A stretch of 64,000 bases of DNA from Antedon mediterranea (taxonomy: Eukaryota > Animalia > Echinodermata). Below, piece by piece: positions 1 through 62,904 of this stretch (positions within the stretch are counted from its first letter, which is position 1; the number at the start of each line of letters is the position of its first letter). Location of the stretch: positions 5,456,001 to 5,520,000 of the forward strand of contig NC_092673.1 of assembly GCF_964355755.1 (NCBI RefSeq). The letters are read 5' to 3'. The notes under the pieces were generated by a model that was given only the letters and a program-made list of their open reading frames with translations, was not told the origin of the DNA and ran no database searches. The translations under genes and the position numbers were made by a program.

Positions 1-779
1 TGACATTAATGTTATTCTTATTAATTGTTGATGATTAATGCAAATGTCAAATTAAACTATTAATCACAATGTACTTTAAATATCTCAAATTCTGATATTA
101 GCTGATTCAAACAACAATAGGCATTTACAATTACCATAGTTACTATGGTATTAAAGGTAATAGGTTAGATAATCCAAACCTTTTGAAAACACTACAATAG
201 ATAGTTCTTTGTAATGCCATGTTCGATTCCTAAAGAATGTAAGCTACTGTTTAAATCAATGTATTTGCTGAGTAAATGAACAAATACTTCTTTTGTAGAT
301 TGGTCTATTTATTGTCAAGTGTCCTAGTGAAGGCAGGTACTATACTACAATAGTTATCACAGTGATGCAGCCACGACAAAATAAAGTGGTCAGGTTTTTG
401 CAAGAAAAAGGGAAGAATCTCTGTTAAAGCCACTGAGTTGTCAAAGGCCTCAGGTTGAAACCTTACCAACCATACTGGTGGGTATCGCTATGGCCCTGTA
501 TCACTAAAGATATAGGATTTGAAATGGTATAAAAAGTGCAAAAGGAATTGATGAACAGATACTAATGTCCTATCTTTTGCATTATAATTATCAAAACTCA
601 AGGGAAAGGATGGGGGATGGTGCTGGCTGGCCAACCACATTTTATCCGCCTATTAAAATTACTGTATTACATTAATATACTCTAGAAGCACCAGATTTCA
701 CTAAATTGATAGTAGAATTGGACACAATACTACTGAACCATTTGTAGTACAGCTAAACTTATTTGGTTTAATTATTTAC

Positions 780-3652
780 CTGCTGGTGAGCGTGCATCAA
801 CAGAGCTAACAAATATTCCCAAGCCGTGTTCTGAGCCACCTCTGATGCTAAATCCAAGGCTTCCGCATACCTTCTGTATGGTTATATGACAAAGACTTGA
901 CGGGGAATGCTGGCCTACGTGAACAGATCCTACAGTGTACAAAAAACAAAATACAATACAAATAATATTAGGGGGAAGAGAGAGAGTTTGTATGGTTATA
1001 AAAAAAAATGTGGCTATTGCATGCATCCATACGCATAGGGTATCAAAATGACCAGAATTATACTGGAAATGTATTTGAAAACTGCACTGGGGTATAGTAT
1101 CTTTGCTTGTAAGCAGTACTAAAGTCGTTTTGTTTAACCAATCATTTATTAAATACAATAATATTCGGGTAATGATATCCCAATCATAATAAACTACCTG
1201 TATGAAGTGAAATTTAAAACAAAGAGGTGTACAAAAAAATTTTTTACAAATTTTGTAAAAGTACAGTATGTTTTTCAAATTCAGGGATGTAGGCCTACTG
1301 TAGCTACCGAAATCTGAAGGTGACTAAATTTTGTTAGTACCAGCAGCTTTCAGGAAGACTTATTTAGGGGGATCTTTGACACCTTTTTTTATAGTATTGT
1401 ATAAATATTGTAGATCATCACAACATTTTTAGAAGATGAAATCAATCGATCAGCCAATTATTTATATTCATTGCAAACAGCTGAACATAAGCCTCAAGTA
1501 AATGATATAATTAAAGGCTGATTTGGTAATCATCACATTTATTGAAGCATAAATACTCATTTGCATATTGATTTATTCCATAGAACAGGTGTTTGTATTT
1601 ACCAGGTAGTATTATAATATTTGATTTTTATCACCTGGAAGAGACACATTTGATGTGTATCACAATAGCATTTGAAATTAACTTACAATGACTCATATAG
1701 TATTAATCATACAATTGTTATTATTATTACAGTATAATTATTATAATATTGTATTCAAAATTACAAAAGTATATAATTAATATCATTATACACGGGTAGC
1801 TGTGTAATCTATGCAGATTGAAACAATTTATTGTTGATTTTTTATTTCTCCTTCCTTGACCATTTTTATCTTTGCTATTAATATTATCATCTTTAATTTT
1901 CTCCAATGCAATTTTTAAATTTCTCGTAAATCTGAAATATAAAAAGATGTATGATCAAATATAATCCAGAACATATCTCCATTTAATTACAGATCATGTG
2001 AGGAGCATGTCTTAAGACAACTTATCATCTGAATGACACCAATGTCCTTAGTAGAAAGGTGTTCATACTGTAGAGTATACAGTAATTAAAATAGGTATGT
2101 ATTGATTTGGTAATGAGGAGATCTTAACTGTAATATTGTAGCTTACTGCATTTCATGATTCACTATACGACTATGTTGCTGTCGAGTCGAAAAGTCATTC
2201 ATAAACAAATGTGAGCATGCACAGATCCGTATAAGAAACCAAGAGAACCAGAGATACAGTATTTACTATAAAAACTACTCAATGTTTTGAAATAATAGAT
2301 TGGATTGTATATTCATTCATTTATTCAAACTAAATGAACAGGCCTATACTACAGTGTACAGTACGTAATTCTGATTCTGAAAAGTGCAAATATCGTACTG
2401 TACCTGTAGCTTGATAATTCCTTTATTAAAAAAATAAACAGAGCACTATTCAACATCTTTCATTTCGTACAAATGTATTCGCCTAGTGGTAAACAGGCTT
2501 TACTGTACTGTAGGTAAAAAACTGAATATGGGGCATTTGATAAATTGTTTTTTCTTTGTATTATATTTAGCCAATAGGAGAGCAATGTTACTATCGTCTA
2601 AGGCATTGCCAACGATAGGGTTCTGAGATATTAATGTACTATACAGTATTTATAAATTCCCATGGAATATACAGTACAGTACATCTCCATGTCTTTGTGA
2701 GGTTGTAATTTGTCATTAGACAAAATCCTGACATATGACAGGACTTGAATCCACGATTGGTAGCCAAGCATCATAACCACAACTCCACTACAGTACTACT
2801 ACTGTAGTCAGTAAATTATTGCACATGTACCAGAAGTGGATTAGTGAGGGATTACCAAACCTAAATCTACGGCAGACAAAACAAAAACCAACCTGTTGAG
2901 TATCTTCTTGGAATAACAAACACGTTTGTACGAACATTAGTATAAATCCTAGCCATAATTGGAATACCGTAATACTTAAAACCATGTGTACAAAACACAA
3001 TAAACTGTAGGCCTGTATATGGTGTGAAAACAGCACACAAGAATCAGTTGCTGCTATGATAGACTATCAACATAAATACTAATACAGCATTGATTTGTGG
3101 TGGCTTTGAATATAGATCACATGATATGGTTGGTAAGTGGGGGAAAATCACCAGATGTTAGTCAATGGCAGCAGAAAACAATAGAGTAGTAACAGAGGTT
3201 GTTAAACTGAATGCAAGGATCTTTTGTTTGATTGATCGTGAATATTAGTTGACAGAGAAATACTATATTACATGTGTTGATCACAATACTTTGCATATTG
3301 AAAATCTTAAATTAAATGGAATGGAAAAAGAAAAATTACCATCCGTATTTTGTTCTCGTTTTCTTCTTGTAGTTGGGGAGTATGGGTGGGCCATCTCAGA
3401 GTATGGAGCTAGTTCATCAAACTGCTGCACGTGCGATGATGGAATCAAGGATCGAATTTCCTTCAAAAGGTCTTTCTTTCGTGGAGTATCAAGCGCACTT
3501 TGCAGGCATATCATCAACTTTTCCACGTCTTTATACGTGTGGTACTGTCGTAAGATATCATGTAGATAATCACGTTCTAGATCGGTTAGTAACGAGTTGG
3601 CTTTTCGTTGGAATTTCTTCAGATTCCGCTGTAGGTCTAACGTGGCAGCCAT
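780..3652 (-). CDS. PDZD7/whirlin-family scaffold protein, first two coding exons seen (3340-3652, 780-929); gene continues beyond window start
   Basis: Exon 3340-3652 encodes a harmonin-homology (HHD) domain (ERDYLHDILRQYH...LLKEIRSLIP). Exon 780-929 encodes PDZ1 (LGFSIRGGSEHGLGIFVS). GT/AG sites and phase 1 match. Acceptor at 3737-3738; probable non-coding first exon ends at donor AAG|GTAAGA at 17049. Confidence 0.85.
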
Positions 3653-3999
3653 CTTGAATAGAAGAAGAAGATCCTTTGTGTTTTCTTTAAAAATGTCTAC
3701 ATTATTTTCCGATCATTGCATACTGAATGTGTAGACCTGCAAATAAAATAAATATTAAAAATAATAATAGACATGATTTACTAAATACTATATTTATTTA
3801 ATCTTGAGTACAGTAATACCAACAATACAGTAATTTCATAACAAAAATAATAAAAATATAAACTGTAGTATCCTTTATATTTTCATCGGAACATTATAAT
3901 ACAGTATTTATTTGTTTAAATTTATAAAATTGTTTTTTCTTGCTCTTTATAAATAATGAATAACCACTTTTAACCATACAGTAGGAAAAATTGCCAAAT

Positions 4000-4480
4000 G
4001 GTCAGGTCGTACTTACAATACATTAAAATGCTACAGTACTGTACCTGTTACACCATTTCATTATAACTATGACAACCACATATCTATCCTAGGCTTATAG
4101 TTAGGTTACCAGTAGTGCGTTTCTTGTTCAACAAGGCAAGAACAATTCCCAACAGTGTAAATGTCGTACTTACTGTAAATTAAAATGCTACAGTACATAT
4201 TACACCATTTCATCAAGAACTATGACAACCACATATCTATCCTCTAGGCCTATATAGTTAAGTTACCAGTAGAGCGTTTTTTGTTCAACAAGGCAAGAAC
4301 AATTCCCAACAGTGTAAACGTCAGACTTTATGTACATTAAAATGCTACAATACATGTTAAACCATTTCATCAACAACTATATGTATGACACCCACATATC
4401 TATCCTAGGCCTATAATAGTTAAGTTACCAGTGGCGCGTTTCTTGTTCAACAAGGCAAGAACGATTCCCAACAGTGGAAA
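4000..4480. repeat. Three diverged tandem copies of a ~155-bp unit
   Basis: ttcttgttcaacaaggcaagaacaattcccaacagtg and acatatctatcct recur three times, about 155-160 bp apart. Confidence 0.9.
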
Positions 4481-4879
4481 TGTGAATATTTTAAAATGGC
4501 AAAAGAATCGACTACTGTTGCAGACACACTTGGTTTGTTATGCCAATCAATTTCATAATCAATAAAGAGCCAAGATAAACAGATAATAGAATTGTCTTAT
4601 AATGAAGCTGATCTCGCTAACATCCTCTGTATCCATTGGTTTCCATCCAAAGTTGATTATATCCATGTAATTTTAATTTTCGCTAATGTAATAAGTTTTT
4701 AAAACCAAATTTTTGGCAGACCTTCAAATTCTAATTTGCCTAAAAATTACACACATTTTTAATTTATCAAAATTTAGTGTTATGAAATATTGTGTAATAA
4801 TTGACATATTTTAAATTATATTACAGTACTGTATGTAGTTTTGTACTCTATAGTACAGTATCTGTAGTACAGTATCTGT

Positions 4880-5240
4880 AGTACAGTACTGTAGTACTGT
4901 ACTGTAGTACTGTACTGTAGTACTGTACTGTAGTACTGTACTGTAGTACTGTACTGTAGTACTGTACTGTAGTACTGTACTGTAGTACTGTACTGTAGTA
5001 CTGTACTGTAGTACTGTACTGTAGTACTGTACTGTAGTACTGTACTGTAGTACTGTACTGTAGTACTGTACTGTAGTACTGTACTGTAGTACTGTACTGT
5101 AGTACTGTACTGTAGTACTGTACTGTAGTACTGTACTGTAGTACTGTACTGTAGTACTGTACTGTAGTACTGTACTGTAGTACTGTACTGTAGTACTGTA
5201 CTGTAGTACTGTACTGTAGTACTGTACTACAGTACTGTAC
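4880..5240. repeat. 13-bp minisatellite (TACTGTACTGTAG)n, about 26 copies
   Basis: Near-perfect tandem array read directly; ORF 4811-5362 is its artefact. Confidence 0.97.
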
Positions 5241-5340
5241 TTGGAGTATCTGTACAATAGTATTAGCTTATCAGTATGCAGACTTTTATGTATTGTACAG
5301 ATACTGTAATAGTTATTTTTATGCCTGTCTATCTCCACTG

Positions 5341-6129
5341 TACGGAAGCCCGTTCGGGCCACAAGTTAACTATATTTTAAAAGCTGTTATCTGGCGGCCG
5401 CCACTTAATTATCTGGCGGCCGCCACTTAATAATTAGTACATGTCCCCGTCACGTGACATGTACGTGCATTGGATCAGAGGCGATGATGCATGCAATAAA
5501 ATAGGGAACGCCAGTATTCTCTTCACATGCGGTGACGTCATGCTCTCAAACTATTTCATTAATGCTCTTATACCGCACACCATTATCTTATACTCATTCC
5601 TAATGCTCTTATGTGCATAACTGATGCTCTTATAGTTATACTCATTCTTAATTCTCTTATACTCTTTCTTAATGCTCTTATACTCTTTCTTAATGCTCTT
5701 ATACGGGTCTTATACTCATTCTTAATGCTCTTATACTCTTTCGTCATGCTCTTATATGACTTTCCATGCTCTTATACTCTTTCGTCATTCTAAACTATGC
5801 GACGTATCATGCTCTTATGAGGTAATTAAAAATGCATCGACACATTCTCGACGCACGTGGCGCACTACTTCCAATGTAAAATAATCGACGGCTGTACAAA
5901 TAAGTCTAGGAAAGTTACAATTATCTTAATTATCTGGCGGCCGCCAGATAATTATCTGGCGGCCACCAGATAATTAAGTGGCGGCCGCCAGATAATTAAG
6001 TGGCGGCCGCCAGATAATTAAGTGGCGGCCGCCAGATAATTAAGTGGCGGCTGCCAGATAATTAAGTGGCGGCCGCCAGATAACAGCTTTTAAAATATAG
6101 TTAACTTGTGGCCCGAACGGGCTTCCGTA
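5341..6129. mobile_element. Non-autonomous DNA transposon, probably IS3EU-type
   Basis: Long TIRs TACGGAAGCCCGTTCGGGCCACAAG... / ...CCCGAACGGGCTTCCGTA; 6-bp TSD CCACTG (5335-5340, 6130-6135); subterminal 22-bp repeats containing GCGGCCGC; internal tgctcttata repeats. Confidence 0.85.
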
Positions 6130-6835
6130 CCACTGCTATTTTACAATATGCATAAATAGATCAATACACAATTAACATTTTCTATGCTTTTACCAACTTT
6201 CAGAAAAACCTTAACAAAATTTACATGAATACATGTTAACAACAGCAGTGAAAGAAGTCATAAAAAAGATTTTGAACCATGGAGATACACAGTAACAGTA
6301 CTCTGTCTCAATGTCTATGCATTGCCAAACCCAGGAATGTAAAACACTGTATGGGTAAAATGATGTAATGTGTTACTGTATAATTTAATGGGGGTCCTCC
6401 TCTCCCTCTGGATCCACCTTTTATTATTTTATGTTTAAGTACAGAATATCTTCTGAAGTACTGTATTAAAAAAAGTGGTAAAATTATTTTTTAAATGAAA
6501 TTTTATTGCGATACCTACAGTACAGTACTGTAAGCTGTGATGAAGTGTACAAAATTGTATCATTGTATTAGAAAGTCTATGAATTGATTTTCTATTATGA
6601 GGTTGGCTAACGATGTCATGATCTACCGAAGCAGAATAAGTAGAAGGCTTTGCAGTTTTAAAAACATCGATGGAAATCATTCGCACATTTGTACGCTAAA
6701 TTTGTAATCAATCATATCAATGTCTCACAATTATTACGTTATAAACAACGCATTTCTAATATACTGTATCATACTTCCTGAGAGACATATTTACACCTAC
6801 GGTAGAAAATATCAACAATTTTTGTTTATAAAAAA

Positions 6836-7630
6836 TGTGACGTCCATAAACCCCCGGACTAATTTGGAATAGTCCAAGTACACAAGGTGACAGGGTGGGC
6901 ATAGGTGGCATGAGGTCATTAAAGATTTGCCACATATGAGTGTAACATCTATAAAATCCTTGTCATCATTTATTGTGTATTACTATTCTTAGGTACGTAA
7001 ATATTATTCTCTGTATTATTTTGTATTATAGAGATAATTTCCATAATGTAGTTATTGTTCAGGATGATAGATATTACCCTTGGGATAGATATGTTGTTCA
7101 TACAATATGGTTACAGTTGCGGTTCTACACCGTATAATGAGAGGGTAAGCCAAGGTTAACATTCTTTCCAGGAGGGAACGTCCTTGGATTCAGCATGGTT
7201 ACTATGACAACTAAGATAAGAGTATCATTGTGTTATTTTATAGGTTACGTATGAAGTATAACTTGATCATAGTGACTTTGAGAGTTATATTTGGTATAGA
7301 CACAAGTACAAGTCATGTATTATTTATACTGTATTGATGTTCACCTTGGTATAATAGGAAGGTGAAGAAGTGTTACAGGTTTATTACTTATTTAACACGA
7401 CCTTAGTTGAGAGATAATGCTTCATCGTTAGTATTTTTAGAGTTATGAAATACAGTAGCAGATGTACTGTAGTTTTAAGCTTACTATGTTTGATGATAAG
7501 AGGTCCATTAAAGATTTGCCACATATGAGTGTAACATCTATAAAATCCTTGTCATCATTTATTGTGTATTACTATTCTTAGATCTCTCAACGACGGAAAA
7601 CATCCCTGTACTCATTGACCAGGGGTAACA
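6836..7630 (+). repeat. 5' LTR (795 bp)
   Basis: Matches the 3' LTR by eye except for one 5-bp indel; internal ~75-bp direct repeat. Confidence 0.97.
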
Positions 7631-7633
7631 TTT

Positions 7634-7652
7634 TGGAGGCACTGCCCGGATT
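7634..7652 (+). promoter_or_regulatory. Primer-binding site, probably tRNA-Thr
   Basis: TGGAGGCACTGCCCGGATT, 3 nt after the LTR; resembles the complement of a tRNA-Thr 3' end (TGGAGGCACCGCTGGGATT, recalled). Confidence 0.6.
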
Positions 7653-7663
7653 CATCTGAAACT

Positions 7664-8782
7664 ATGGCTGAAAGAGAGGAACAGAATGTGGAAGGTGACG
7701 TCAATCCGGTTGAGAATCAGGACGATAATGGTGCTGAGGATGCAGGAGTAAATATCGGTTTACAGGAGGAATATGAAAAAAAGCTACGGGACATGATGGC
7801 AGCGCATGAAGAACAACTGAAGAAACTACAACAGAGCTTTAAAGAAGCTGCAAATGCTAAGCCGACGACAGTAGTTTCTAGAAGGGACTTCAGGATGAGT
7901 GGCCAAATTGGTGAGCCAGGCCAGAAAGACCGATTAGCATTTGGAAGTTTGATTCACCAAATTGAATCTGGCAAGAGCCGAGGATACAGTGATCAGGAGA
8001 TTATTGAAGCTGTTATTAAAGCAATAGTACCAGGTGCGTCACTCCGGAGCTACTTAGAAGGTAAACTGGGGTTAACTCTGCCCAAACTAAGAGCTATCCT
8101 TAGGGCTCACTTTGGAGAGGAAAATGCCACAAAATTGTTTCACCGACTATCAAGTGCGGTACAAGATCCAAAAGAAACCCCACAGACATTCCTTCTGCGG
8201 GTACTGGATTTAAAACAAAGAATCTTGTTTTCTTCGCAAGAAGAAAACTCTGGGATCAAGTATGAGCCAAAGCTGGTTCAAAACATGGTCAGGCAAGCCC
8301 TTCTAACTGGTTTCCAAGAAGACGAAATCCGATCCGAGATAGCACCACACCTCAAACGAAACATCGAGGATGAGGAAGTAATGGATGCGCTTAATATAGC
8401 GGTAAACAATTACCAGGAACGTTTGGCTAAACTCAAAGCAGGAAGGACTAAAGTTTGCAAAGTGGATGTGGATGAATCTTTGAGAAAGGGATCAGGTTGT
8501 GAAAAGCAAAATGAAAACAAACGTTTTGAACTATTCACTCACGAGATGAGGGACATGTTACAGGCCGGATTAAATCAAATTCGACAAGAAGTGGGTGTAA
8601 TTGGTCAACAACAAGCCACGACCCAGAACAACAACCACGGAAACCGGCCTGCAGTTCGGGCATGTGATGGATGTCGCACACGTGGTACCAGATGCAATCA
8701 CTGTTTCAAGTGTGGAAGCAGTGAACATTTTGCTCGTGGTTGTCGATCCCAACGCAGAAATCAGGCGGGAAACGAGCAGTGA
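7664..8782 (+). CDS. gag: Gypsy Gag (capsid plus CCHC zinc knuckle)
   Basis: 372-aa ORF just after the PBS; QDPKETPQTFLLRV capsid-like motif; CFKCGSSEHFARGC knuckle. Confidence 0.93.
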   Translation: MAEREEQNVEGDVNPVENQDDNGAEDAGVNIGLQEEYEKKLRDMMAAHEEQLKKLQQSFKEAANAKPTTVVSRRDFRMSGQIGEPGQKDRLAFGSLIHQIESGKSRGYSDQEIIEAVIKAIVPGASLRSYLEGKLGLTLPKLRAILRAHFGEENATKLFHRLSSAVQDPKETPQTFLLRVLDLKQRILFSSQEENSGIKYEPKLVQNMVRQALLTGFQEDEIRSEIAPHLKRNIEDEEVMDALNIAVNNYQERLAKLKAGRTKVCKVDVDESLRKGSGCEKQNENKRFELFTHEMRDMLQAGLNQIRQEVGVIGQQQATTQNNNHGNRPAVRACDGCRTRGTRCNHCFKCGSSEHFARGCRSQRRNQAGNEQ

Positions 8783-11700
8783 TCACCCAGACGGGACGAG
8801 GCGTGATCAATTCTACCGAAAAGTCCCCTTATGTAAATAGTTTGCCAGGATACATAAATCAAATAGGACATATTAATCCTGTTCACCATCAAAGACTTGT
8901 CAAACTGGTGGGCCGAAAGTGTATCGTAAATTGTAAATTAAATGATGTAAATTGTAAGGTTCTCTGGGACACCGGAGCACAAGTTTCATTGTTGCCGACG
9001 ACCTGGTTAAAGACACATTTTCCAAACCAGCAACTGAGAGACCTAAAGGAACTACTGGATGATACAAACCTTGAGCTAAGTACAGCCGATGGAACGAATC
9101 TTCCATTCGACGGATGGACTGAGGTGTTTGTTGAATTATCGTTGGATGGAAAATCCACACAGCAGGTCAGAGTTCCTTTTCTAGTTACTAAAACAAATCT
9201 AAGTGAACCAATAATCGGTTACAACGTTGTGGAACATATAATAATGGGTCCGGCTCGACTACATCCGAATGCCATAAAAGCGTTTCCAAAGTTTCATAAT
9301 AAGAAGGTAGACTGTTTAATAAATTTGGTCAAGGAAAACACTGGCACTATGGGCACTGTTACGTTCGACGGAAACGATGTTGTCATCAGGAAAGGAGAGA
9401 CAGTTTCAATAAAATGCCGAGCCTATATGGGAACAAAAGATAAAGTTATGGCTATGTTTGAACCGAGCGTTGAAAATCTTCTATCAATTGGACTAGAAAT
9501 GTACGATACTGTTGTTGAAATACAAGGAAATTCCTGTAGACTGTATGCGCATAACCCAACACCACACGAAATTATGCTGAGACGGAGAATAACCGTTGGA
9601 CATGTGGAAGGAATACAAAGCGTATTGTTACCTACACAATCAAGAACGGAGTATAGCAAGAAAAAAGGCGACTCTCAAAATCCAACCACCAAAGTTACAG
9701 TAGGAGCTACAACCTCGGAAGGCGGTACGGACGAATTATGGGACCCGCCTGTGAGTCTAGACCACCTTACCTCGGAACAACAGACGGTAGCCAAACAAAT
9801 GCTACGCGAGGAGTCAGCTACTTTCTCAAAGGGAGACTTTGATATTGGGTGCTCCCCTGAATTACAAATGAGCTTACAACTTACTGACAATATCCCTGTA
9901 CAGAAATCATATACTTCAATCCCTCGACCGTTGTATGAAGAGGTAAAACAGTACATTCATGAACTTTTAAGCAAGGGGTGGATCAAGAAGTCACAGTCTT
10001 CATATTCATCTCCAGTAGTATGTGTCCGAAAAAAGGACGGCAGCCTTAGATTGTGTTGTGATTTCCGTGGACTTAATTTAAAGACTGTACCCGATAGGTA
10101 TCCGATACCAAGAATGCAAGATGTACTCGATGGCCTCAGTGGACAAAAGTGGTTCTCAACTTTGGATCAGGGAAAAGCCTATCATCAAGGATTCATATCT
10201 CCCAATAGCCAACCCCTAACCGCTTTTGTGACTCCATGGGGATTATTTCAATGGAACAGGATTCCATTTGGTTTGAAAAACGCACCTGCGGTATACCAAA
10301 GGTTTATGGGAACAGTACTAGAGGACATTAATCATCGAATCTGTGAGGTGTACTTGGATGATGTCCTGATCTACAGTCAAAATTTTCATGAACAAGTGGA
10401 GAACATTCGAAAAGTTCTGCAACGATTCCGACAGCACGGTGTAAAAGTCAAACCTGAAAAGTGTAGCCTCTTTCGGAAAGAAGTGCGGTACCTAGGGAAG
10501 GTAGTATCCGCAGAGGGGTATCGACCAGACACCAAAGACATTGTTGCCATGACGTCATTAAAACAAAAGACACAAAGGACAGTTGGCGATGTGAGGAAAG
10601 TACTGGGACTGATTGGTTACTACCGACGTTATATAAAAGATTTCTCAAAAAGGGCGAAACCCATTTTTGACCTTCTGAAGAAAGATTTACCCACGTCACA
10701 AACATCGTCAAAGAAGATAAAAGGTCAAACATCATCAAAAACCCCTATTGAATGGACAAGAAATCACCAAAGCATATTGGATAAATTCATCGATGAATTA
10801 GTGAGTGAACCCATATTAGCTTATCCAGATTTTTGTTCACCATTTGTGTTACATACAGATGCCTCGATGGATGGTCTTGGAGCAGTACTTTATCAAAGGC
10901 AAAACGGAAAAATGCGAGTTATTGGGTATGGTTCCCGATCTCTAAGTCCCTCAGAGAAGAATTACCACTTACACTCCGGTAAACTCGAATTTTTGGCTTT
11001 GAAATGGGCAGTGACTGAACATTTCCGTGACTACTTGTACCATGCACCGTCATTCACGGTTTATACAGACAACAACCCGCTGACCTACGTTCTGACATCG
11101 GCGAAACTGAATGCCACAGGTCATCGATGGGTGGCAGAACTTGCCGATTTTCACTTTGACATTAAATACAGGCCGGGTAAATCTAATATTGATGCTGACG
11201 TTCTGTCGAGGATACCTCTTGATATCGACCGCTACATCAAAGAATGTATTTCATGTATATCAACGGATACTATCAAAGCTATGTCAAACGGAGTGTTTGC
11301 ACTGCAATCCGGCCAAGTGACGCTACTTTCTGGAGTTTCAGCAAACCCAACCGATAATGAACCAGTAACACCTGTGACCAAACATTCCTCGATATTTTGC
11401 CCCGCAGATATCCTCCAAGAACAGCGTATGGATGATACAATTTTAGCGGTAATACCATTTGTCGAAAGAAACCGACCGCCAACTAAAAATGAAAGAACGA
11501 AGTTATCACTTAAAACCAACCTATTACTACGACAGTGGAAAAAGTTGAGACTAGATGACAACGGAAATCTTCGACGAGAAACATCGGATCGGTCACAGCT
11601 AGTTCTACCGCAACAACTAATTTCTAGAGTGCTAACGGAGCTGCATGACAACATGGGTCATTTGGGCGTAGAGAGAGTACTTCAAATGGCACGGGACAGA

Positions 11701-13268
11701 TTTTATTGGCCAAAAATGCAAAAAGACATTGAGGACTACATCACCAAGCGTTGCTCCTGTATTAAGAAGAAGAAGCCGGTGAGAAATGACAAAGCTCCAT
11801 TAAGACCAATAAGTACAACTGAACCATTTGAGCTGGTCTCTATTGACTTCCTTCACCTAGAGCGTAGTAAGGGCGGGTATGAGTATATCCTAGTGGTTAT
11901 GGACCACTTTACCAGATTCGCAGTGGCCTACCCAACTACAAATAAGTCTGGAAAAACCGCAGCCGACAAAATATTTAATGATTTTTGTTTAAAGTTTGGG
12001 TTTCCTAAACGCCTACATCATGACCAAGGACGGGAATTTGAGAATAGTTTGTTTTACTACCTCCAGAAATATTCAGGTGTGGAACATTCCAGAACAACAC
12101 CATATCATCCACAGGGAAATGGGCAAGTGGAGCGGTTTAACAGAACGTTACTCTCCATGCTCAGAACACTGGAGGATGACCAGAAACCGGATTGGAAGAA
12201 CCATTTGACCAAACTTGTACATGCTTATAATGCAACCAAGCATGACACGACGGGTTTCTCTCCTCATTTTCTTTTATTCGGAAGACAGCCAAGATTACCT
12301 GTTGATATACTTTTCAACTTGTCGCGATCGGGTCCAGAGAAAACTACTCCACAGTATGTGCAAGCATGGAAACGGCAGATGAAGGAAGCATACCAGATTG
12401 TCAGAGAACGGGCAGGAATAACAAGTGAGAACAGCAAGCAACGGTACAATCGGAAAGCCCACGCCATTACTTTACACCCAGGAGATCGCGTATTAGTAAG
12501 GAAACTGGCACAACCAGGTGGTCCTGGAAAGTTGCAAAATTATTGGGAAAATGATATCTTTAAGGTAGTACGACAGCAAGGGGATTTACCAGTATATATC
12601 GTAAAACCCGAATGTGGAGTTGGCCGGACTCGTACACTACACCGAAATCATCTTCTACAGTACCTTGTGATTCTTTACCGTCAGAAGAGCGACTACAACC
12701 TAAACCAACATCAACCAAAAAGAAATGCATGCCGAAGACACAGAATGCACAACACACTATGACAGATAGCGAGCTGACAGATGGCGATGACGAGGATAGA
12801 TGGGATAGTGTAGGCCAAATTGAACCGACATTGGATAACAGGGTAAATGAAACAGATTCTTCAAGTGATACATCAGCGATTTTAGATCCGAATGCAACTG
12901 CATTTATACCACCCCGACTACAGTTTGTCGATGAAACTGACGTACCGCAAATTCAGGATCTGGCACCAAACATGGATGAACAGCAATGTTTCGCTGATGA
13001 CAGGTCGAATGAGGATGAATTAGTTGATCAACTACAGGAAAATGAGAACAGAATTTCCAATACTGGTAGTGTAGTAGAGGAAGCAGAAGACCGGCCAATC
13101 CGAAATAGGCGTCCACCTCAAACACTGACTTACAGCACCATGGGAACGCCTGACCCATCTTGTATGAAGATAACAGAAAGCATCGACAGAACAAGCGAAA
13201 AGCAGCGGAAACTGAATTTTATATCGTATCTATTTATACCCCAGTCGTGTCGGTTGTTCGGCAGTTAG
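8767..13268 (+). CDS. pol: Gypsy Pol (protease, RT, RNase H, integrase), reached by -1 frameshift; C-terminus disrupted by a 5-bp insertion at 12658-12662
   Basis: LWDTGAQVS, YLDD, LHTDAS, HHCC and DDE integrase (SIDF, HHDQGREFE, GQVER). ORF 8740-12762 joins ORF 12612-13268 when CAGTA is removed. Confidence 0.95.
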
Positions 13269-13403
13269 TTTACCGATGATATGGCCGTGATGTATTATAT
13301 AATATTTTTTTCGTTCTTCAAACGTGTTTTCCTTTCTCATTATGTACATATTCGTAGATTAAGTTTGAAATGCCGTTACGTCATTTTTTTTAGTGGGGGA
13401 GGG

Positions 13404-14203
13404 TGTGACGTCCATAAACCCCCGGACTAATTTGGAATAGTCCAAGTACACAAGGTGACAGGGTGGGCATAGGTGGCATGAGGTCATTAAAGATTTGCCA
13501 CATATGAGTGTAACATCTATAAAATCCTTGTCATCATTTATTGTGTATTACTATTCTTAGGTACGTAAATATTATTCTCTGTATTATTTTGTATTATAGA
13601 GATAATTTCCATAATGTAGTTATTGTTCAGGATGATAGATATTACCCTTGGGATAGATATGTTGTTCATACAATATGGTTACAGTTGCGGTTCTACACCG
13701 TATAATGAGAGGGTAAGCCAAGGTTAACATTCTTTCCAGGAGGGAACGTCCTTGGATTCAGCATGGTTACTATGACAACTAAGATAAGAGTATCATTGTG
13801 TTATTTTATAGGTTACGTATGAAGTATAACTTGATCATAGTGACTTTGAGAGTTATATTTGGTATAGACACAAGTACAAGTCATGTATTATTTATACTGT
13901 ATTGATGTTCACCTTGGTATAATAGGAAGGTGAAGAAGTGTTACAGGTTTATTACTTATTTAACACGACCTTAGTTGAGAGATAATGCTTCATCGTTAGT
14001 ATTTTTAGAGTTATGAAATACAGTAGCAGATGTACTGTAGTTTTAAGCTTACAGTACTATGTTTGATGATAAGAGGTCCATTAAAGATTTGCCACATATG
14101 AGTGTAACATCTATAAAATCCTTGTCATCATTTATTGTGTATTACTATTCTTAGATCTCTCAACGACGGAAAACATCCCTGTACTCATTGACCAGGGGTA
14201 ACA
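13404..14203 (+). repeat. 3' LTR (800 bp)
   Basis: Copy of the 5' LTR with an extra CAGTA at 14052-14056. Confidence 0.97.
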
Positions 14204-14732
14204 AAAATAAGATGGCGTGTTATTTGGTCAGCCATTTTACGGCGGTTTTAAACTAAAATTTAATTTATATATCTCTCATGTTCTACTACTGTAGGAATTC
14301 AAATCTAATTTTTGCTGTGTTGTTTATTCACATTTAAAGGATTCATACAAAATATTTTTAAAATTTATTTTTAAAAGCTTCCATATCCATTATAAAACCT
14401 TCAAAATTGTGTACAGTAGTGATAAAAAAAATATCAGCAAATTTTATGGAGTTACATGTATACATTCAGTCTCCATGTGAAATATTTAATAGTCAGCAAC
14501 ACAATACTTCCATAATGTTACAAACAGCAGTCTCTTCTCCATGGCAACAACAACTGTTATTTCAACAAATAATACAAGAAATATTTTCAGACATTTTTGC
14601 TCATATTAAATAAGTAAATTACACAATTCCAAAGTAATACTGTATATAAATTTCAATCAGATGCTATAATCGTTACTAAATTGTTTAAAATAAGGATTAT
14701 TATGATTGTTACTGTATATCATAATGTTATTA

Positions 14733-14752
14733 CAGGGAGATACATCTCCCTG
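14733..14752. mobile_element. 20-bp P-type mini-hairpin or excision footprint
   Basis: CAGGGAGATACATCTCCCTG flanked by 7-bp direct repeat GTTATTA. Confidence 0.65.
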
Positions 14753-15782
14753 GTTATTATTAATACTGTACAAAATTGTTACAGTAGTACTATTCATATG
14801 GCAATAATGCATATGTTTTGATCATGTTCAGAAAGACCTTTTGACTTGACAGCTGCTTAGTACGGCATAAGGGCATGTCAATATCATTTAAAATGAACGA
14901 TTTATGAATCATCAACACTAACCATATAAAATTAAAAATTCTAGTATACAGTGTAATCAAGGCAATGTAACAGCTCTCAGATCAAAGGGTTTAACTGTGG
15001 CTGCGACACAATCATGATAAACCCCAGCCTTACAGACACTGCATGCCACGGAGAATATGTACAAAGTACAGTACTGTTAGTCTTTGTCGCAGCCAGACCA
15101 AGGATCAAAGGACTGTTATGAGTTTTTATCCTGGCAAGATGAGCACACTGTCCTGTTGTTAGATTGCCATGTTGTAATATGAGATTAAAAGATGCGAGTT
15201 TAGTGGTGACTGAACAGTAATCTCAGTTGAATTAGGAAGAGTACAGTAAAAGCATTGAGATGCTGCAAAAGGAATAGCAGTAACAATGAACAAACACATT
15301 CATTGCGGTAATAGAGTACATTTCAGTCAGTGCCGACTATGGCTAGACATAATACTGTAGACCCATTCAAGATTTGATATTTGATGCTAAAAATGTTTAT
15401 GGTAGATGAACAAGTACATAACTACAGTACATTCAGATTTTAAAGGATATCTTAAATTACATAATAGTTTCTCTTTAAATCAACAATTGTTGTGTGTAGC
15501 AGCTAAGTGACAGAAAAGTTTATGTTAAGAATAGGTGTAAATTGGTATCATTGCATCAAGTTAAGTACAGAATTACTGCAGAAGAGACCAAATGTCTTTT
15601 GTTCAGACATGGTTTAAAGGTCTTAACTTTTTTCTTAACTTTTTGGTTGAACTAAAATAACGTACTATTTACTTATACTGTACTGTATACAGTATAATGA
15701 CATATAATTTACAATGCCTGCTGTATTCAAAGATAGGTATAAAGTACAATACAGATTATACAGTACATCATAATGTATGATA

Positions 15783-16275
15783 TGATTCAATTCAATTCAA
15801 TTTATTTATTGCTGCAAATGCCATCAAGGGCTAATATCCGCTTAAACATACTACATACAAACATATACATATTTACATTTAAAATTTAAACACATAAAAA
15901 TTATAGTCATTACTATACTGTTGTAGTTATTATTTTTTTAAATTATTGTAATTGTTGTTTTTATGATTATTGTTATTGTTATTATAATAATTAATATAAA
16001 TGTAATAAATTATAGGTTACATCTTAAGGGCAGTTTTATTGTGAAGCATTGTGAAGCACAGAGAAGGAAGACACGTTAAGATGAAACGATTGAGCGAGTG
16101 AGAGTGAGTGAGGTAGAGTAGAGTGAAGAAAACGAGTAGAGTGAAAAAAACGAGTAGTATGTCCTTTAAAGGGAAGATAAGAAAAGTGTCGATTATGGCG
16201 AAGGACGAACAGGAGGAAGAAATGAACGAAGAGGGTGTTGAGGAGACTGCGTGATAGCACAAAGAAATTTAGGTA
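15783..16275 (-). mobile_element. 5'-truncated CR1/L2-clade LINE 3' end
   Basis: Minus strand reads ITQSPQHPLRSFLPP / YLPFKGHTTRFFHS across a frameshift (typical ORF2 tail), then an AT-rich 3' UTR ending aataaataaa(ttgaa)n. Confidence 0.5.
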
Positions 16276-16352
16276 AAAAATACTGATGCCTTAAAGAGAG
16301 GGAAATAACAGGGCTTTATTTCTTCATGCTTAAATCATAGAGAAACTTAAAC

Positions 16353-16379
16353 CATGGACCTATAAATTAGAGGTCCATG
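16353..16379. mobile_element. 27-bp P-type mini-hairpin or excision footprint
   Basis: CATGGACCtataaattagaGGTCCATG flanked by 7-bp TSD CTTAAAC; near-identical copy at 50783. Confidence 0.7.
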
Positions 16380-17048
16380 CTTAAACTAAGTAAGGATCAC
16401 ACTTAGCGTTAACGTACATTGTTGATTTAATCAGTTTATTGTGTGAGTATTAACAATGAGGTAAAAAGGGTATTCATTCACTATTGGCTCTTTTATTAGG
16501 GATTAGAGACTTATCCCTATGACATCAGATCATGGAGAAATTCCTTTAGACCACCCCCTGTACATGTACTGTAGGCGTACAATACATTTGCACATGAAAT
16601 AACAAATACAATCAAACTTGTAGATTGTGTTTTGTGATGAAAATCAATACAGTAATTAACATGTCATTGCAATATATTTGAATTCAAAAAATAATTAATA
16701 CAAATTTTAAAATCCTTTTAAATTTAACTACAGTACTTGTTTATAATATAAATATTCCCAGGGAGATCCCTAATATTCCGTACACATATTTTATTTCAAA
16801 TTAATTGTTCAGATAGTGATAATTCTGAAATGGTGCAAATCGCTCATATTACGCTACTACATCGGTTAATAAATAATACTAGGGCCTAGGCCTAGGCTAT
16901 AATATGCATTGTAGTATTACCACCAGACTGAGCTAAAAAACTAACCAACTAACTCTCTGGGCCCCTACCTAATATTATTCGTGACAAATGCAAAAAACAA
17001 CTTGCTCTAACATAATCAACATATCTAGTATATGCATCCACTTCTTAC

Positions 17049-17353
17049 CTTATTGATAACAAAACATGTTCTCAAAATTAAACGTTAAATACAGTATTCT
17101 CATTCTTAATTTTTGACCGCGTATCCATAGACGCTCAAACGAAAGTGACTTACCCTATTAACCCCGTGTTAATATTACGCTCGTTCATCATTGGTTGATT
17201 TGTCAATTGCGTAACCTTTGAACTTGATATAGAGTAAAAACACACAAAACAAAAACACGACTGTGTGTGAGTCCGCGAGACTTTGTTTACTGTTTGAAAT
17301 ATCAAATTAAATTGCAATTTTACATTTTATATGCATTTAAATAACTTGGTAAC
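17049..17353. promoter_or_regulatory. Probable bidirectional promoter, PDZ gene / FAM204A
   Basis: Minus-strand donor at 17047-17048, CCAAT box (attgg ~17190), CpG-richer patch, FAM204A ATG at 17354. Confidence 0.5.
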
Positions 17354-19740: not shown

Positions 19741-19812
19741 CGCCCCAACCGAGACTCGAACTCGGACCGCCTGCTTGATATGCAGATGTCCTAACCATTA
19801 GACCACTGGGGC
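19741..19812 (-). tRNA. tRNA-like gene, anticodon ATC (Asp); possibly a pseudogene or element-borne
   Basis: 72 nt folding into a full cloverleaf (GCCCCAG/TTGGGGC, GTCT/GGAC, TCTGC/GCAGG, CCGAG-TTCGAGT-CTCGG), G discriminator, TTTTT just downstream; atypical A32 and A34. Confidence 0.6.
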
Positions 19813-20006: not shown

Positions 20007-23000
20007 TTATTCTTGATATTTTAATAACTTGCACCCCTTAGTTTTATAGGCTGGCCATCTGCACTTAGGACAGCAATGATTTCCCCCTCTCAGCCATGTA
20101 ACAATGCAACCATGGTGGTAAACATGTCCACATGGCAACCCACAAACGGTGTCGTTTTGGTGGTACACTTCCAGGCATATGGCACACTCCAAACATGTAT
20201 TGTAGTTACTGGTAGTACATTCACGTTCTCGATAAACGGTACTTGAACCTTTATCATGTGATCTTGAATTGACATTTTGATTGGAGTCCGTCACTTGATT
20301 GACGTCACCATGATTTACTCTGCCTGAAGCTGGCATAACATCGTCATTTTGCGAAAAAGAAACATTCTGATTATCAAGCGAGTTACTACTACAAGAACTA
20401 TTCAATTTGTTGACATCCGTTCCATTTTCCTCATCAAATGCAACATTTTCCGTTCCTTTCCCACCGCAAAATTTCCACGTTGGTAGGTTTGAAATGTAAT
20501 CCATTGGAATAACTGGGTGTAACCAAAAACCAGGAACCGCAAGTCGTTCAATTAACATGTCCAATCCTTCTTCCACATGCACTCTATTCAAACGAGGGCC
20601 GCGTAAATTTGACGAAGGCCTGATAAGAAACATGTAATAATCTTGAATAACTCTATGTAACCAAGCTGCATTTGATTCTTGCGATACATTCGTCAATCTC
20701 TTACGATATTTTTCGATAAACCCAATAACACAACAATATATTAAGAATGTTAACAAAAGAAATGTCGTATAGTGAGAGTACACGAGAAGATCACTACGTA
20801 TATAACACATAAAATCAGATATCAGAAATTTACGAAGGATTTTGTTGCCGAAATTCCAAACAGGTTTAAGAACGGATAGTTGTAAAGTTCCAAGAAACGG
20901 TAACCAAAATGCCAAAAAGCTGAAATTTGATTTTCCAAATGTCCATGAAAAATAAACGAATCGTTTCAATATACCACCTTGTGTTATGAAGAAATCAAAA
21001 ACACAAAGAATATTCACAGCAAATAAACTCCATATAAATGCATCATTAATTTCCGGAGATAAAGTTTTTAGATACAGAACAAGTTTATCATAAGACATAT
21101 ATTCACCTGCGTGTATTCCGTAACGTACATCACCTTCTGATGTTGCAATTAATATAGATGGAATTCTCGTTTTAATTTTTTTGGAATTTTTAATTTCAGA
21201 AAACTGTCTTTTATTTGTTGATATAAATGCAAACTTAATCCTTCCTGTAAATTTTGCACCAAGTGATGAGAAAAATAACGGTGGTTCACTGGCACTCGAA
21301 AAATAAGCGATGCGTACTGGAAATTGATTGGGACGATTTCTTGCCATTTCCATCCACGGTTTAGCATTATCAAGATTGTAAAACCTTGTGACCTTTGACA
21401 TTAAATGTGCGTTTAATCGATCAAGTATGTAGGATGCTGAACTTGGTTTGTAATAGTGGAACATGGTCACATGATCTTTGTACGTCTCGCCCTGAGGCAT
21501 TGCCAGCAGAACGCTTTGTTCCAACCAGTTTTTCATCAAACAGAAACTGAAAGAAATATAAATTATTTTTCCATAGTATTTTTGTGTAAGGGCGTGTGGC
21601 GCAGTGTGATGGACGTTCGACTACTGATCGTGAGATTGAGGTTCAAATCTAATGCTCGTCGCATTGCTTGTATCCTTAGGCAAGATACTTTACTTACGTT
21701 TGCCTCTCTCCACCCAGGTGTATAAATAGGAACCCTGTTAGTGTTAGATCAAGACACAACTTTGTGCTGGTTACTAGCTGCATTATGGGAGTATTTTTCC
21801 ATACGTGTTTGATCAAAAAAATGACTGGGGTAATAATGTTCAGCGGTTAGAGGTTTCACAACATTAGGCGCTATATAAATCCACGATATTATTATTATTT
21901 TAAAGTAAAATAGAAAAGTAAAATCTGTATTTTTAATAGAAACTAAAACTTATAATAATAATAATAATAATTTTCTGATAATGATCAAATAAAGATCGAA
22001 ACGTTGAATCACGGCTTGCTTCACGTTATTGGGATATGTTATTTAAACATAACCAGTGCATCTATTGGTTAAATAAATGTAATATAGTTTTTTTATATAG
22101 TGGTATGAAAAACTATGTTTGTACAACTTTTTATGTATTACTGTATATTTCATTGTGTTGTTATTAGTAAAGAGCAGTTATTCAGTTTGGGTTTTTTTTT
22201 CTGGCTTCTTATCTATCTTACTTTGTATCCAAACTACAGTTAAATGTTCCTGTTCTTATACCAAATTTGGACACTTTTCTTCTAATTGTTTTCCATGAAT
22301 TTTTAGAATGCAAGGGTGGACGATCTGGAGGTACAACCTGAAAAATGTAAAAATATTAGTCAAATAAAGGAACATCAGACTAGCATGTGAGAGGCATGGG
22401 TTTAGGTCATATTGCTTAAGAAAAGAAAGAACATTTGCTCTCATTGCCTCATCCATCAGATGTAAAGCCGCTGGTCCCATGTATTTATTGCTCTATAAAG
22501 AACTTGGTACACTATTCGAAAAGAGCAGGGGATCGTCTCCAGGTGTGCTGATGATTTCTGAGTTGATTTCTTGGACATTAATTTGTTCAATTATCGACAT
22601 TCGAAAGTTCTTTAATTCTAAAGCTCTGTCTAGACTATCAAACTTTATGTGTCCATATATGGACATGATGTCATATCAATACCATATTTGGGCATATCAC
22701 TACTATATTTAGGCATATCACTAACATATTTGGTCATATCACTATCATATTTGGGCAATTTACCTGAATCACCCAGACACTGTCTTTCTTGTCCTCTACT
22801 TCCTCATAGAAGTGTCCTCTAGACCTGAACAATGTGGTATCATTTTCTTCCAATTCACCATCTTCCTGGATTTCCATCAATTCACCATCATGGACATCAC
22901 CTACACAATGAAAAATAAAGATGAATAAAATCAAAGTATATTTTCTTGTAGTTTTAAATAGTTATTAATTTTTACCAAAACAAAAGGTTTTCACTTATAA

Positions 23001-27700: not shown

Positions 27701-28332
27701 TATCGTGGATAGCCTCTTTCAAGTGCTTAAAGCTCCTTCTACACTCTACAAAAAAAGTGTGATGTGCCCAAATATGGTAGTGATATGCTTAAATATGGTA
27801 GTGATATGACATCATAATCATGTCCATATATGGGCACGTCACATTTTTTGTCCCATAAAGTTTGATAGTGTAGACAAAGCTTAAGTACTTAAGATGATTT
27901 GGCAATACCATTCCACATTTACATTTGTAAGATTCAGAACTTTAAAATGTTACAATAGTATTCAAAAGATATAGAATTGTTATTATGACAAAATCTGTAA
28001 ATTTCCAGCTATGTCACAACCTAATACATTTTAAAAACCAGTTTTCACATCTTTAAAATGTCATTGTTAACTGACAGGCCTACCTGATTGGTCAACTAAG
28101 TTTGCAAGGTCAATCTTCGTAACAACATTGTCGTAGTCTACACCTGTCCTATCTAAAATCTTCTTCAACTGTGTGGTGTTTAACAGAGTCGGATCCATGA
28201 CATCGGAAGACCAGAATTTCGTTTTCCGTAACACGAAACTGAGCAAAAGCATAAAGACTCCTATAAATAACACTTTTGCGATGAATAAGCATATTTCTTT
28301 AGCCAAAAACTTTGTGATTTCCTTTTTAATAG
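24716..28332 (-). CDS. Diverged RNF103 paralogue B (exons 28084-28332, 27548-27660, 27180-27295, 24716-26048); start codon exon uncertain
   Basis: Same intron positions and phases as RNF103; DPTLL..LKKILD..GVDY; PPLFF; TRGGIFRR; RING-H2 ending CPKCRWPAY, then an extra hydrophobic tail; frame open throughout. Confidence 0.85.
26151..26324. mobile_element. Harbinger-like MITE
   Basis: TIR aggccaatttacacagacga / tcgtctgtgtaaattgcct; related copy at ~53983-54338. Confidence 0.7.
26978..27157. mobile_element. Palindromic MITE
   Basis: Imperfect inverted ends (atataagattttgacatcc / ggatgtcaaatctaatatat) with internal ccctcg motifs. Confidence 0.55.
27731..27881. mobile_element. MITE family A copy
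   Basis: TIRs, TAA TSD, internal tgcccaaatatggtagtgata repeats. Confidence 0.8.
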
Positions 28333-32097: not shown

Positions 32098-35000
32098 GAT
32101 AAAACAAGATATTAAGTACTCGATTGGGAGGACAAGGAGGGTAAAGAATTGCAAGCATCACTTTGACTAAGCATATTGTAGCAACAGTTAAAACAAGATA
32201 TTAAGTACTAAATAGATTGGGAGGACAAGGAGGGGTAAAGAATTGCAAGCATCACTTTGACTAAGCATATTGTAGCGACAGTTAAAACAAGATATTAAGT
32301 ACTCAACTAGATTGGGAGGACAAGGAGGGGTAAAGAATTGCAAGCATCACTTTGACTAAGCATATTGTAGCGACAGTTAAAACAAGATATTAAGTACTAA
32401 ATAGATTGGGAGGACATCGAGGGGTAAAGAATTGCAAGCATCACTTTGACTAAGCATATTGTAGCAACAGTTAAAACAAGATATTAAGTACTAAATAGAT
32501 TGGGAGGACAAGGAGGGGTAAAGAATTGCAAGCATCACTTTGACTAAGCATATTGTAGCAACAGTTAAAACAAGATATTAAGTACTAAATAGATTGGGAG
32601 GACATCGAGGGGTAAAGAATTGCAAGCATCACTTTGACTAAGCATATTGTAGCAACAGTTAAAACAAGATATTAAGTACTCGATTGGGAGGACAAGGAGG
32701 GGTAAAGAATTGCAAGCATCACTTTGACTAAGCATATTGTAGCGACAGTTAAAACAAGATATTAAGTACTCAACTAGATTGGGAGGACAAGGAGGGGTAA
32801 AGAATTGCAAGCATCACTTTGACTAAGCATATTGTAGCGACAGTTAAAACAAGATATTAAGTACTAAATAGATTGGGAGGACATCGAGGGGTAAAGAATT
32901 GCAAGCATCACTTTGACTAAGCATATTGTAGCAACAGTTAAAACAAGATATTAAGTACTAGATTGGGAGGACAAGGAGGGGTAAAGAATTGCAAGCATCA
33001 CTTTGACTAAGCATATTGTAGCAACAGTTAAAACAAGATATTAAGTACTAGATTGGGAGGACAAGGAGGGGTAAAGAATTGCAAGCATCACTTTGACTAA
33101 GCATATTGTAGCAACAGTTAAAACAAGATATTAAGTACTAAATAGATTGGGAGGACAAGGAGGGGTAAAGAATTGCAAGCATCACTTTGACTAAGCATAT
33201 TGTAGCAACAGTTAAAACAAGATATTAAGTACTAAATAGATTGGGAGGACAAGGAGGGGTAAAGAATTGCAAGCATCACTTTGACTAAGCATATTGTAGC
33301 AACAGTTAAAACAAGATATTAAGTACTAAATAGATTGGGAGGACAAGGAGGGGTAAAGAATTGCAAGCATCACTTTGACTAAGCATATTGTAGCAACAGT
33401 TAAAACAAGATATTAAGTACTAAATAGATTGGGAGGACAAGGAGGGGTAAAGAATTGCAAGCATCACTTTGACTAAGCATATTGTAGCAACAGTTAAAAC
33501 AAGATATTAAGTACTCAAATAGATTGGGAGGACAAGGAGGGGTAAAGAATTGCAAGCATCACTTTGACTAAGCATATTGTAGCAACAGTTAAAACAAGAT
33601 ATTAAGTACTCAAATAGATTGGGAGGACAAGGAGGGGTAAAGAATTGCAAGCATCACTTTGACTAAGCATATTGTAGCAACAGTTAAAACAAGATATTAA
33701 GTACTCAAATAGATTGGGAGGACAAGGAGGGGTAAAGAATTGCAAGCATCACCCTGACTAAGCATATTGTAGCGACAGTTAAAACAAGATATTAAGTACT
33801 AAATAGATTGGGAGGACAAGGAGGGGTAAAGAATTGCAAGCATCACTTTGACTAAGCATATTGTAGCAACAGTTAAAACAAGATATTAAGTATTCAAATA
33901 GATTGGGAGGACAAGGAGGGGTAAAGAATTGCAAGCATCACTTTGACTAAGCATATTGTAGCAACAGTTAAAACAAGATATTAAGTACTCGATTGGAAGG
34001 ACAAGGAGTGGTAAAGAATTGCAAGCATCACTTTGACTAAGCATATTGTAGCAACAGTTAAAACAAGATATTAAGTACTCGATTGGAAGGACAAGGAGGG
34101 GTAAAGAATTGCAAGCATCACTTTGACTAAGCATATTGTAGTGACAGTTAAAACAAGATATTAAGTACTCAAATAGATTGGGAGGACAAGGAGGGGTAAA
34201 GAATTGCAAGCATCACTTTGACTAAGCATATTGTAGTGACAGTTAAAACAAGATATTAAGTACTCGATTGGGAGGACAAGGAGGGGTAAAGAATTGCAAG
34301 CATCACTTTGACTAAGCATATTGTAGTGACAGTTAAAACAAGATATTAAGTACTCAAATAGATTGGGAGGACAAGGAGGGGTAAAGAATTGCAAGCATCA
34401 CTTTGACTAAGCATATTGTAGCGACAGTTAAAACACGATATTAAGTACTAAATAGATTGGGAGGACATGGAGGGGTAAAGAATTGCAAGCATCACTTTGA
34501 CTATTAGTCAGCATATTGTAGCGACAGTTAAAACAAGATATTAAGTACTAAATAGATTGGGAGGACAAGGAGGGGTAAAGAATTGCAAGCATCACTTTGA
34601 CTAAGCATATTGTAGCAACAGTTAAAACAAGATATTAAGTACTCGATTGGGAGGACAAGGAGGGGTAAAGAATTGCAAGCATCACTTTGACTAAGCATAT
34701 TGTAGTGACAGTTAAAACAAGATATTAAGTACTCGATTGGGAGGACAAGGAGGGGTAAAGAATTGCAAGCATCACTTTGACTAAGCATATTGTAGTGACA
34801 GTTAAAACAAGATATTAAGTACTCGATTGGGAGGACAAGGAGGGGTAAAGAATTGCAAGCATCACTTTGACTAAGCATATTGTAGTGACAGTTAAAACAA
34901 GATATTAAGTACTCGATTGGGAGGACAAGGAGGGGTAAAGAATTGCAAGCATCACTTCGACTAAGCATATTGTAGTGACAGTTAAAACAAGATATTAAGT

Positions 35001-35748
35001 ACTCAAATAGATTGGGAGGACAAGGAGGGGTAAAGAATTGCAAGCATCACTTTGACTAAGCATATTGTAGCAACAGTTAAAACAAGATATTAAGTACTAA
35101 ATAGATTGGGAGGACAAGGAGGGGTAAAGAATTGCAAGCATCACTTTGACTAAGCATATTGTAGCAACAGTTAAAACAAGATATTAAGTACTAACTAGAT
35201 TGGAAGGACAAGGAGGGGTAAAGAATTGCAAGCATCACTTTGACTAAGCATATTGTAGTGACAGTTAAAACAAGATATTAAGTACTCAAATAGATTGGGA
35301 GGACAAGGAGGGGTAAAGAATTGCAAGCATCACTTTGACTAAGCATATTGTAGCAACAGTTAAAACAAGATATTAAGTACTCGATTGGAAGGACAAGGAG
35401 TGGTAAAGAATTGCAAGCATCACTTTGACTAAGCATATTGTAGCAACAGTTAAAACAAGATATTAAGTACTCGATTGGAAGGACAAGGAGGGGTAAAGAA
35501 TTGCAAGCATCACTTTGACTAAGCATATTGTAGTGACAGTTAAAACAAGATATTAAGTATTCAAATAGATTGGGAGGACAAGGAGGGGTAAAGAATTGCA
35601 AGCATCACTTTGACTAAGCATATTGTAGCGACAGTTAAAACAAGATATTAAGTATTCAAATAGATTGGGAGGACAAGGAGGGGTAAAGAATTGCAAGCAT
35701 CACTTTGACTAAGCATATTGTAGCGACAGTTAAAACAAGATATTAAGT
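32098..35748. repeat. Tandem array of 90-95-bp units, about 39 copies
   Basis: Unit gttaaaacaagatattaagtactc(aaata)gattgggaggacaaggaggggtaaagaattgcaagcatcactttgactaagcatattgtagcaaca; overlaps the last codons of paralogue C. Confidence 0.97.
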
Positions 35749-62900: not shown

Positions 62901-62904
62901 CTGT

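Follow-up and report, generated by a model that had tools for sequence, protein, structure and literature searches.

The two long terminal repeats (LTRs) of a retrotransposon of the Ty3/gypsy type in the crinoid Antedon mediterranea differ by 5 bases only, which turn a TA dinucleotide of the 3′ LTR into TACAGTA. This heptanucleotide is probably a footprint left on excision of a Tc1-like transposon of the cut-and-paste type, which would have inserted and gone again after integration of the retrotransposon. All coordinates refer to the window, the whole 64-kb stretch of DNA analysed here, and the features are collected in Table 1.

The LTR pair and its host element

Exact comparison of the two LTRs revealed a sole difference, the 5 extra bases in the 3′ LTR, and their removal made the two sequences identical. 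The same was observed by blastn, which showed a single gap, no mismatch and an identity of 99.375%. The site reads GCTTACTATG in the 5′ LTR and GCTTACAGTACTATG in the 3′ LTR. The register of the pair is an offset of 6568 through 7484/14052 and of 6573 from 7482/14055 on. The 5 bases can be placed in four equivalent ways, with the first base at 14050-14053 (TACAG, ACAGT, CAGTA or AGTAC). The first-pass annotation had claimed that the LTRs differ by one +5 footprint only, with no substitution in the rest of their ~795 bp; it placed TACAGTA at 14050-14056 and older motifs common to both LTRs at ~7327, 7451 and 7465. Both comparisons bear out the first of these claims, the position of the scar is as given there, and the three older motifs are all present in both repeats.

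Judged by its sequence organization, the element at 6836-14203 is a Ty3/gypsy (Metaviridae) LTR retrotransposon. Its LTRs are direct, carry TG..CA ends and are flanked by a 4-bp AAAA duplication, fixed by a contig of the empty site. Pfam matches in pol, given by residue, are gag-asp_proteas (68-170), RVT_1 (434-591), RT_RNaseH (702-809), Integrase_H2C2 (962-1016) and rve (1032-1129), the first with 21.4 bits and so under the Pfam cut-off of 28.2 bits. The Pfam scan gave no match for the gag-like ORF. A near-identical pol was absent from the protein collection searched, in which the best relative (P0011) is 69% identical. Within the 5′ LTR, an internal direct repeat of ~80 bp occupies about 6914-6992 and about 7503-7581, and a TATAAAA occurs near 7540. 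In the public runs described below, further copies of the LTR carry ~30 extra bases at about 7001/13569 (between joint sides in X3 and X4, with loose ends in X1). Outside the element, the ORF at 20010-21497 on the minus strand is 100% identical to an RNF103-like protein of Antedon mediterranea (NCBI), and neighbouring ORFs match harmonin, TAF1B/Rrn7 and RING domains.

Table 1. Features of the retrotransposon, its LTRs and its TACWGTA motifs (window coordinates)
Feature	Position	Strand	Remarks
Left target-site duplication AAAA	6832..6835	+	Empty-site joint 6830->14203 skips 7372 = 7368 + 4
5′ LTR	6836..7630	+	795 bp, TG..CA ends, TGTG...AACA
Older motif TACTGTA common to both LTRs	7327..7333 (= 13895-13901)	+	
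Older common motif TACAGTA	7451-7457 (= 14019)	+	
Older common motif TACTGTA	7465-7471 (= 14033)	+	
Plain TA, counterpart of the scar site in the 5′ LTR	7482..7483	+	Family-wide form in run contigs
Gag-like ORF	7619..8782	+	387 codons between stops; ATG at 7666
Putative primer-binding site TGGAGGCACTGCCCGGATTC	7634..7653	+	TGG-led 20-mer, 3 nt past the LTR; proposed from LTR-retrotransposon anatomy
pol ORF	8725..12762	+	1345 codons; protease, RT, RNase H, integrase (Ty3/gypsy order)
'ORF3', out-of-frame continuation of the pol tail	12564..13268	+	Matches P0011 residues 1401-1422, E = 4e-6
Second private TACAGTA	12656..12662	+	Window +5 vs long contigs, full depth, 4/4 runs
Putative polypurine tract AGTGGGGGAGGG	13392..13403	+	Directly abuts the 3′ LTR; proposed
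3′ LTR	13404..14203	+	800 bp, TG..CA ends
Private scar TACAGTA (TA + CAG + TA)	14050..14056	+	Net +5 vs the 5′ LTR and vs all contigs covering the site
Right target-site duplication AAAA	14204..14207	+	Sequence and empty-site contig

Four public runs (X1-X4), all from one sample and one study, were compared with the window as contigs over 6300-14700 and 13860-14300. A contig of the empty site, with 6830 joined to 14203 and 7372 bases skipped, was found in three of the four runs (X1, X2 and X4); in X3, contigs run across the two junctions of the filled site, and the haplotype of the flank differs slightly. The empty-site allele means that this retrotransposon insertion is polymorphic and young, a conclusion that does not depend on the identity of its LTRs. 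At 14050, contigs without the 5 bases made up the entire depth in all four runs (958.6/958.6, 146.4/146.4, 59.1/59.1 and 57.1/57.1), and the contigs over the 5′ LTR site (7332-7535) showed no gap. Because every contig across 14050 has the TA form, it is settled for the sequences available that TA is the family-wide form and that the 5 bases are a gain and not a loss from the 5′ LTR. The first-pass annotation had named a family consensus containing the 5 bp as one finding that would speak against its reading; the family-wide form in the run contigs is TA.

The same contigs bear on the view that the 5 bases are ancestral and that a deletion from one TA repeat to the other removed them from the 5′ LTR, which we consider very improbable. 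The TA..TA microhomology could mediate such a loss, and at the older motif at 13895 a short, otherwise diverged minority contig without its 5 bases was observed in X1 (143.9/1022.4) and X2 (26/184.2). However, with the TA form in every contig across the 14050 site in the four runs, a loss would be needed in every other copy.

It is hardly credible, too, that the LTRs were already unlike at integration, by an error of reverse transcription or by recombination of co-packaged RNAs. According to the standard replication model, a single minus-strand template serves for the U3 of either LTR. Moreover, a 5-base error that matches the commonest scar motif of the genome would be very unlikely, as a random 5-base insertion in the LTR makes a new TACWGTA with p = 0.0023 (400,000 simulated insertions).

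The scar as a probable excision footprint

Canonical excision footprints of Sleeping Beauty are TACAGTA and TACTGTA, in the part of the source available to us (PMC6943129). In the accessible text of this and a second paper, the footprint consists of three terminal bases of the transposon, flanked on each side by the duplicated TA (PMC6943129; bioRxiv 10.1101/659086). The scar at 14050 lies at a TA which is unscarred in the homologous ancestral sequence, i.e. the 5′ LTR and all contigs covering the site. The change from TA to TACAGTA is a net gain of 5 and matches the TAC(A/T)GTA definition. By this anatomy, the footprint reading appears well supported. A Tc1-like transposon with 5′-CAG...CTG-3′ ends would have inserted at the TA of the 3′ LTR, with duplication of the TA. 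It would then have been cut out with 3-nt staggered breaks, and end joining would have left TA-CAG-TA, as in documented Sleeping Beauty excision.

The scar is located ~55 bp upstream of the TATAAAA, in the part read as U3, and together with the three common motifs it spans about 160 bp of putative U3. In LTR replication, the two LTRs of a daughter copy are both templated by the 3′ U3. Progeny would therefore inherit a scar at this place in each of their LTRs, and such inheritance would explain the three older motifs which the two LTRs have in common.

We searched the window for a possible donor. Pairs of the form TA-CAGT...ACTG-TA (at least 21/30 arm bases) were in the window nearly all inside a 13-bp tandem array; the sole match beyond the array was weak (5230-6530, 21/30) and runs from the array edge into a chain of scars at 6516-6532. 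No TA-flanked inverted repeat (at least 17/20) with CAG ends was found in the 64-kb window, the termini of those detected being CGG, AAG, TGT, TCA, TGA, TAC, CGA, TCG and CAC. Likewise, no resident TA-duplicating element with CAG...CTG termini was found within the 64 kb. A Pfam scan of 75 (9 + 66) of the 101 ORFs of at least 70 aa outside the element gave no transposase domain; the other 26 lie within tandem arrays or on the strand opposite to genes that were scanned. No occupied allele, with an element inserted at 14050, was found in the run contigs of the one sample. Among in-window paralogues (40 pairs, 5286 columns and 143 indels), no further 5-bp scar indel was detected, the only 5-bp indel being the scar at 14050.

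A second scar in pol and the pace of scarring

Over the 8.4 kb compared with contigs, the window differs at nine indel sites, and all three five-base indels fall exactly on TACWGTA. One of them is the TACAGTA in pol (Table 1). The long contigs at 12656 are otherwise 0-3 letters from the window (X2, 0 over 4917 bp; X1, 1 over 5040 bp). Identity of pol to P0011 is 73% up to ...HRNHLL, where the match ends at about nt 12657. With the part 900-1345 as query, alignments reach a coverage of 92% for most relatives, and most full-length relatives among the matches listed have about 1400-1600 aa, compared to the 1345 codons here. Since homology breaks off at 12656 and is picked up again in a different frame, the 5 bases frameshift the pol tail, and 'ORF3' is its displaced end. 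This second private +5 TACAGTA in the same copy strengthens the case for excision scars.

The second scar also bears on a repair origin, in which a break near TA is repaired by templated insertion (of the polymerase-theta type or by a replication template switch) and no transposon was ever present. Possible templates are close to the 14050 site, with a TACAGTA 31 bp upstream (14019) and a TACTGTA 17 bp upstream (14033), and the search of the window for a source transposon came up empty. Yet the exact +5 at TA recurs at 12656, where the nearest other TACWGTA is about 1.2 kb off (13895), and the product is exactly the canonical footprint. The ~100 dispersed TA-derived motifs of the window would also require a recurrent sequence-specific source. 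Templated repair is, on balance, unlikely.

Alternatively, the +5 could be an artefact of assembly, polishing or haplotype mixing, or the LTR could have been joined in from another copy. The +5 form was seen at neither 14050 nor 12656 in any contig of the four runs, all of one sample, and the runs contain only 0.72-0.78 of the sampled query words. However, contig builders drop rare variants and minority branches. The LTR depth in X1 (958.6) is ~4x the single-copy depth (216-252), so that one scarred LTR would be a small minority among several and could vanish from the contigs. To our knowledge, two exact CAGTA insertions at TA in one element fit no known pattern of sequencing error. An LTR borrowed from another copy of the family would, for its part, still carry a real scar. 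We hold an artefact to be improbable.

How fast such scars arise was approached from the same comparisons. One scar and no substitution were counted between the LTRs in 795 bp, and one scar and no substitution between the internal part and the X2 contig in 4917 bp. With r the ratio of the per-base scar rate to the substitution rate, the probability that the first two events are both scars is (r/(1+r))^2. Two scars against no substitution in about 5.7 kb then give r of at least 0.29 at the 95% level, for a case that was picked post hoc. A different value is obtained when the standing density of motifs is taken as an equilibrium with decay of the 7-base motif: r is then 0.012 in the window as a whole and 0.036 in its scar-rich flanks. 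At these equilibrium values, the two-scar observation has a probability of 1.3e-4 (window) or 1.2e-3 (flanks). Because two scars with no substitution are this improbable at equilibrium, there is a faint hint that scars have of late arisen in the element much faster than over the long term, in a burst or at a local hot spot, and not at the rate of a steady clock.

The first-pass annotation had put the scar rate as comparable to the substitution rate on the basis of one event. Its count can be raised to two scars, still with no substitution, and the comparison itself is reduced to the bound on r, which is suggestive only. A wider proposal is that TA to TACWGTA scarring is ongoing here, within a few-fold of the substitution rate, as a major class of germline mutation which disables mobile elements (as in pol), spreads via the 3′ U3 and seeds pentamer microsatellites and minisatellites. 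We regard this proposal as possible but doubtful. If true, young LTR pairs genome-wide would be a built-in clock for the excision rates of DNA transposons in a wild animal.

The excision mechanism is textbook, and the type of scar is known; here it is unusually well dated. Cut-and-paste excision scars are normally studied with marked donors and are hard to recognise in wild genomes. In the present case, an otherwise identical LTR pair in a polymorphic insertion establishes TA as the ancestral state and leaves only a short span of time for the event, which places the case among the cleanest natural readings of an excision event. As for the footprints of Sleeping Beauty and Tc1-like transposons, a 7-bp TACAGTA or TACTGTA at TA with a net +5 is seen. 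The Sleeping Beauty footprints, in the portions of the papers at hand, were published from assays with known donors, whereas the event here is read from a natural LTR pair. Unlike in these assays, the density of scars is high, with 96 in 57 kb of unmasked sequence. The case also resembles LTR-divergence dating, in that the pair starts from LTR identity at integration. Such dating is a standard method for retrotransposons, with LTR identity at integration as time zero. The present case differs from that method in that the sole difference is a specific indel, which bounds the visit of a DNA transposon and not the age of the element. A literature search listed no paper on the accumulation of excision footprints in crinoids.

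TACWGTA motifs and other repeats across the window

TACWGTA occurs 163 times in the window, compared to 13.5 expected from 100 dinucleotide shuffles, and ~60 of these sit in one 13-bp array. After masking of the tandem arrays and the second LTR (57,350 bp left), 96 copies remained where an order-2 Markov model predicts 16.6, a 5.8-fold enrichment. In this masked sequence, the motif ranks second in enrichment among 7-mers and far ahead of every other TANNNTA word. Motifs chained at 5-bp spacing were found 7 times vs 1.65 expected. The distribution is clustered, with 13-20 motifs per 4 kb in 1-6835, 14204-17100 and 60500-63600 and 0-6 in most of 17-60 kb; the dense zones lie upstream of and inside the harmonin-like gene region. 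A flank logo of 99 scars displayed a weak bias only, at position -1. Slippage was considered as the origin of the first unit and rejected, as it cannot build this unit from plain TA.

The tandem array at 4825-5255 comprises ~33 copies of the 13-bp unit AGTACTGTACTGT, made of two chained TACTGTA scars and one base. From the composition of its unit, it looks like a scar-seeded minisatellite. The chain at 6516-6532 is a triple one (TACAGTACAGTACTGTA).

Such chains have a counterpart in a placozoan. In Trichoplax adhaerens, (ACAGT)n is the commonest microsatellite and a regulatory role has been proposed for it, according to the accessible part of the report (Wang et al. 2010, PMC2871265). Chained scars (e.g. 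6516-6532) and the 13-bp array (4825-5255) in the window are built from this same pentamer, in a crinoid here and in a placozoan there; the available text of PMC2871265 contains no mention of footprint or excision. A literature search listed no paper tying (ACAGT)n to excision scars. In a feather-star genome, DNA transposons are given as the largest repeat class, with 34.74%, in the portion of the paper at hand (PMC13079724). The second scar with its frameshift of pol, the 5.8-fold enrichment and the nearby arrays of scar units point to ongoing mutagenic traffic of DNA transposons in the crinoid genome, and they give a mechanistic clue to the (ACAGT)n excess of placozoans, so far unexplained.

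TAGGCCT is the most enriched 7-mer (53 vs 4.3 expected, both strands) and is often chained with TAGGCTA/TAGCCTA. TAGGCCTA occurs 22 times window-wide in varied contexts, e.g. at 16888, 17441, 17551, 17626, 23954 and 44144. TAGGCCTA and TAGGCCT may represent a second class of TA-flanked scar, left by an element with GG..CC ends.

Several other repeats were observed. A 785-bp element at 5340-6130 has 95-nt terminal inverted repeats (98% complementary), 22-bp subterminal repeats containing GGCGGCCGCC, and CCACTG at both flanks. A MITE-like family with 21-bp subterminal repeats (GTGATATGCCCAAATATGGTA) is present at 22640-22760, 27759-27872, 41993-42647, 44307-44393, 52274-52356 and 62915-63795, the last copy being TA-flanked with CACTATCAAACTTTATG termini. 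A large 94-bp satellite extends over 32100-35748 in ~39 copies with 95% matches; some of its units measure 90 or 95 bp, and its GC and AT skew is strong. Finally, ARAGORN called a tRNA-Asp with the unusual anticodon ATC at 19741-19812 on the minus strand, which may be a pseudogene or a tRNA-derived repeat.
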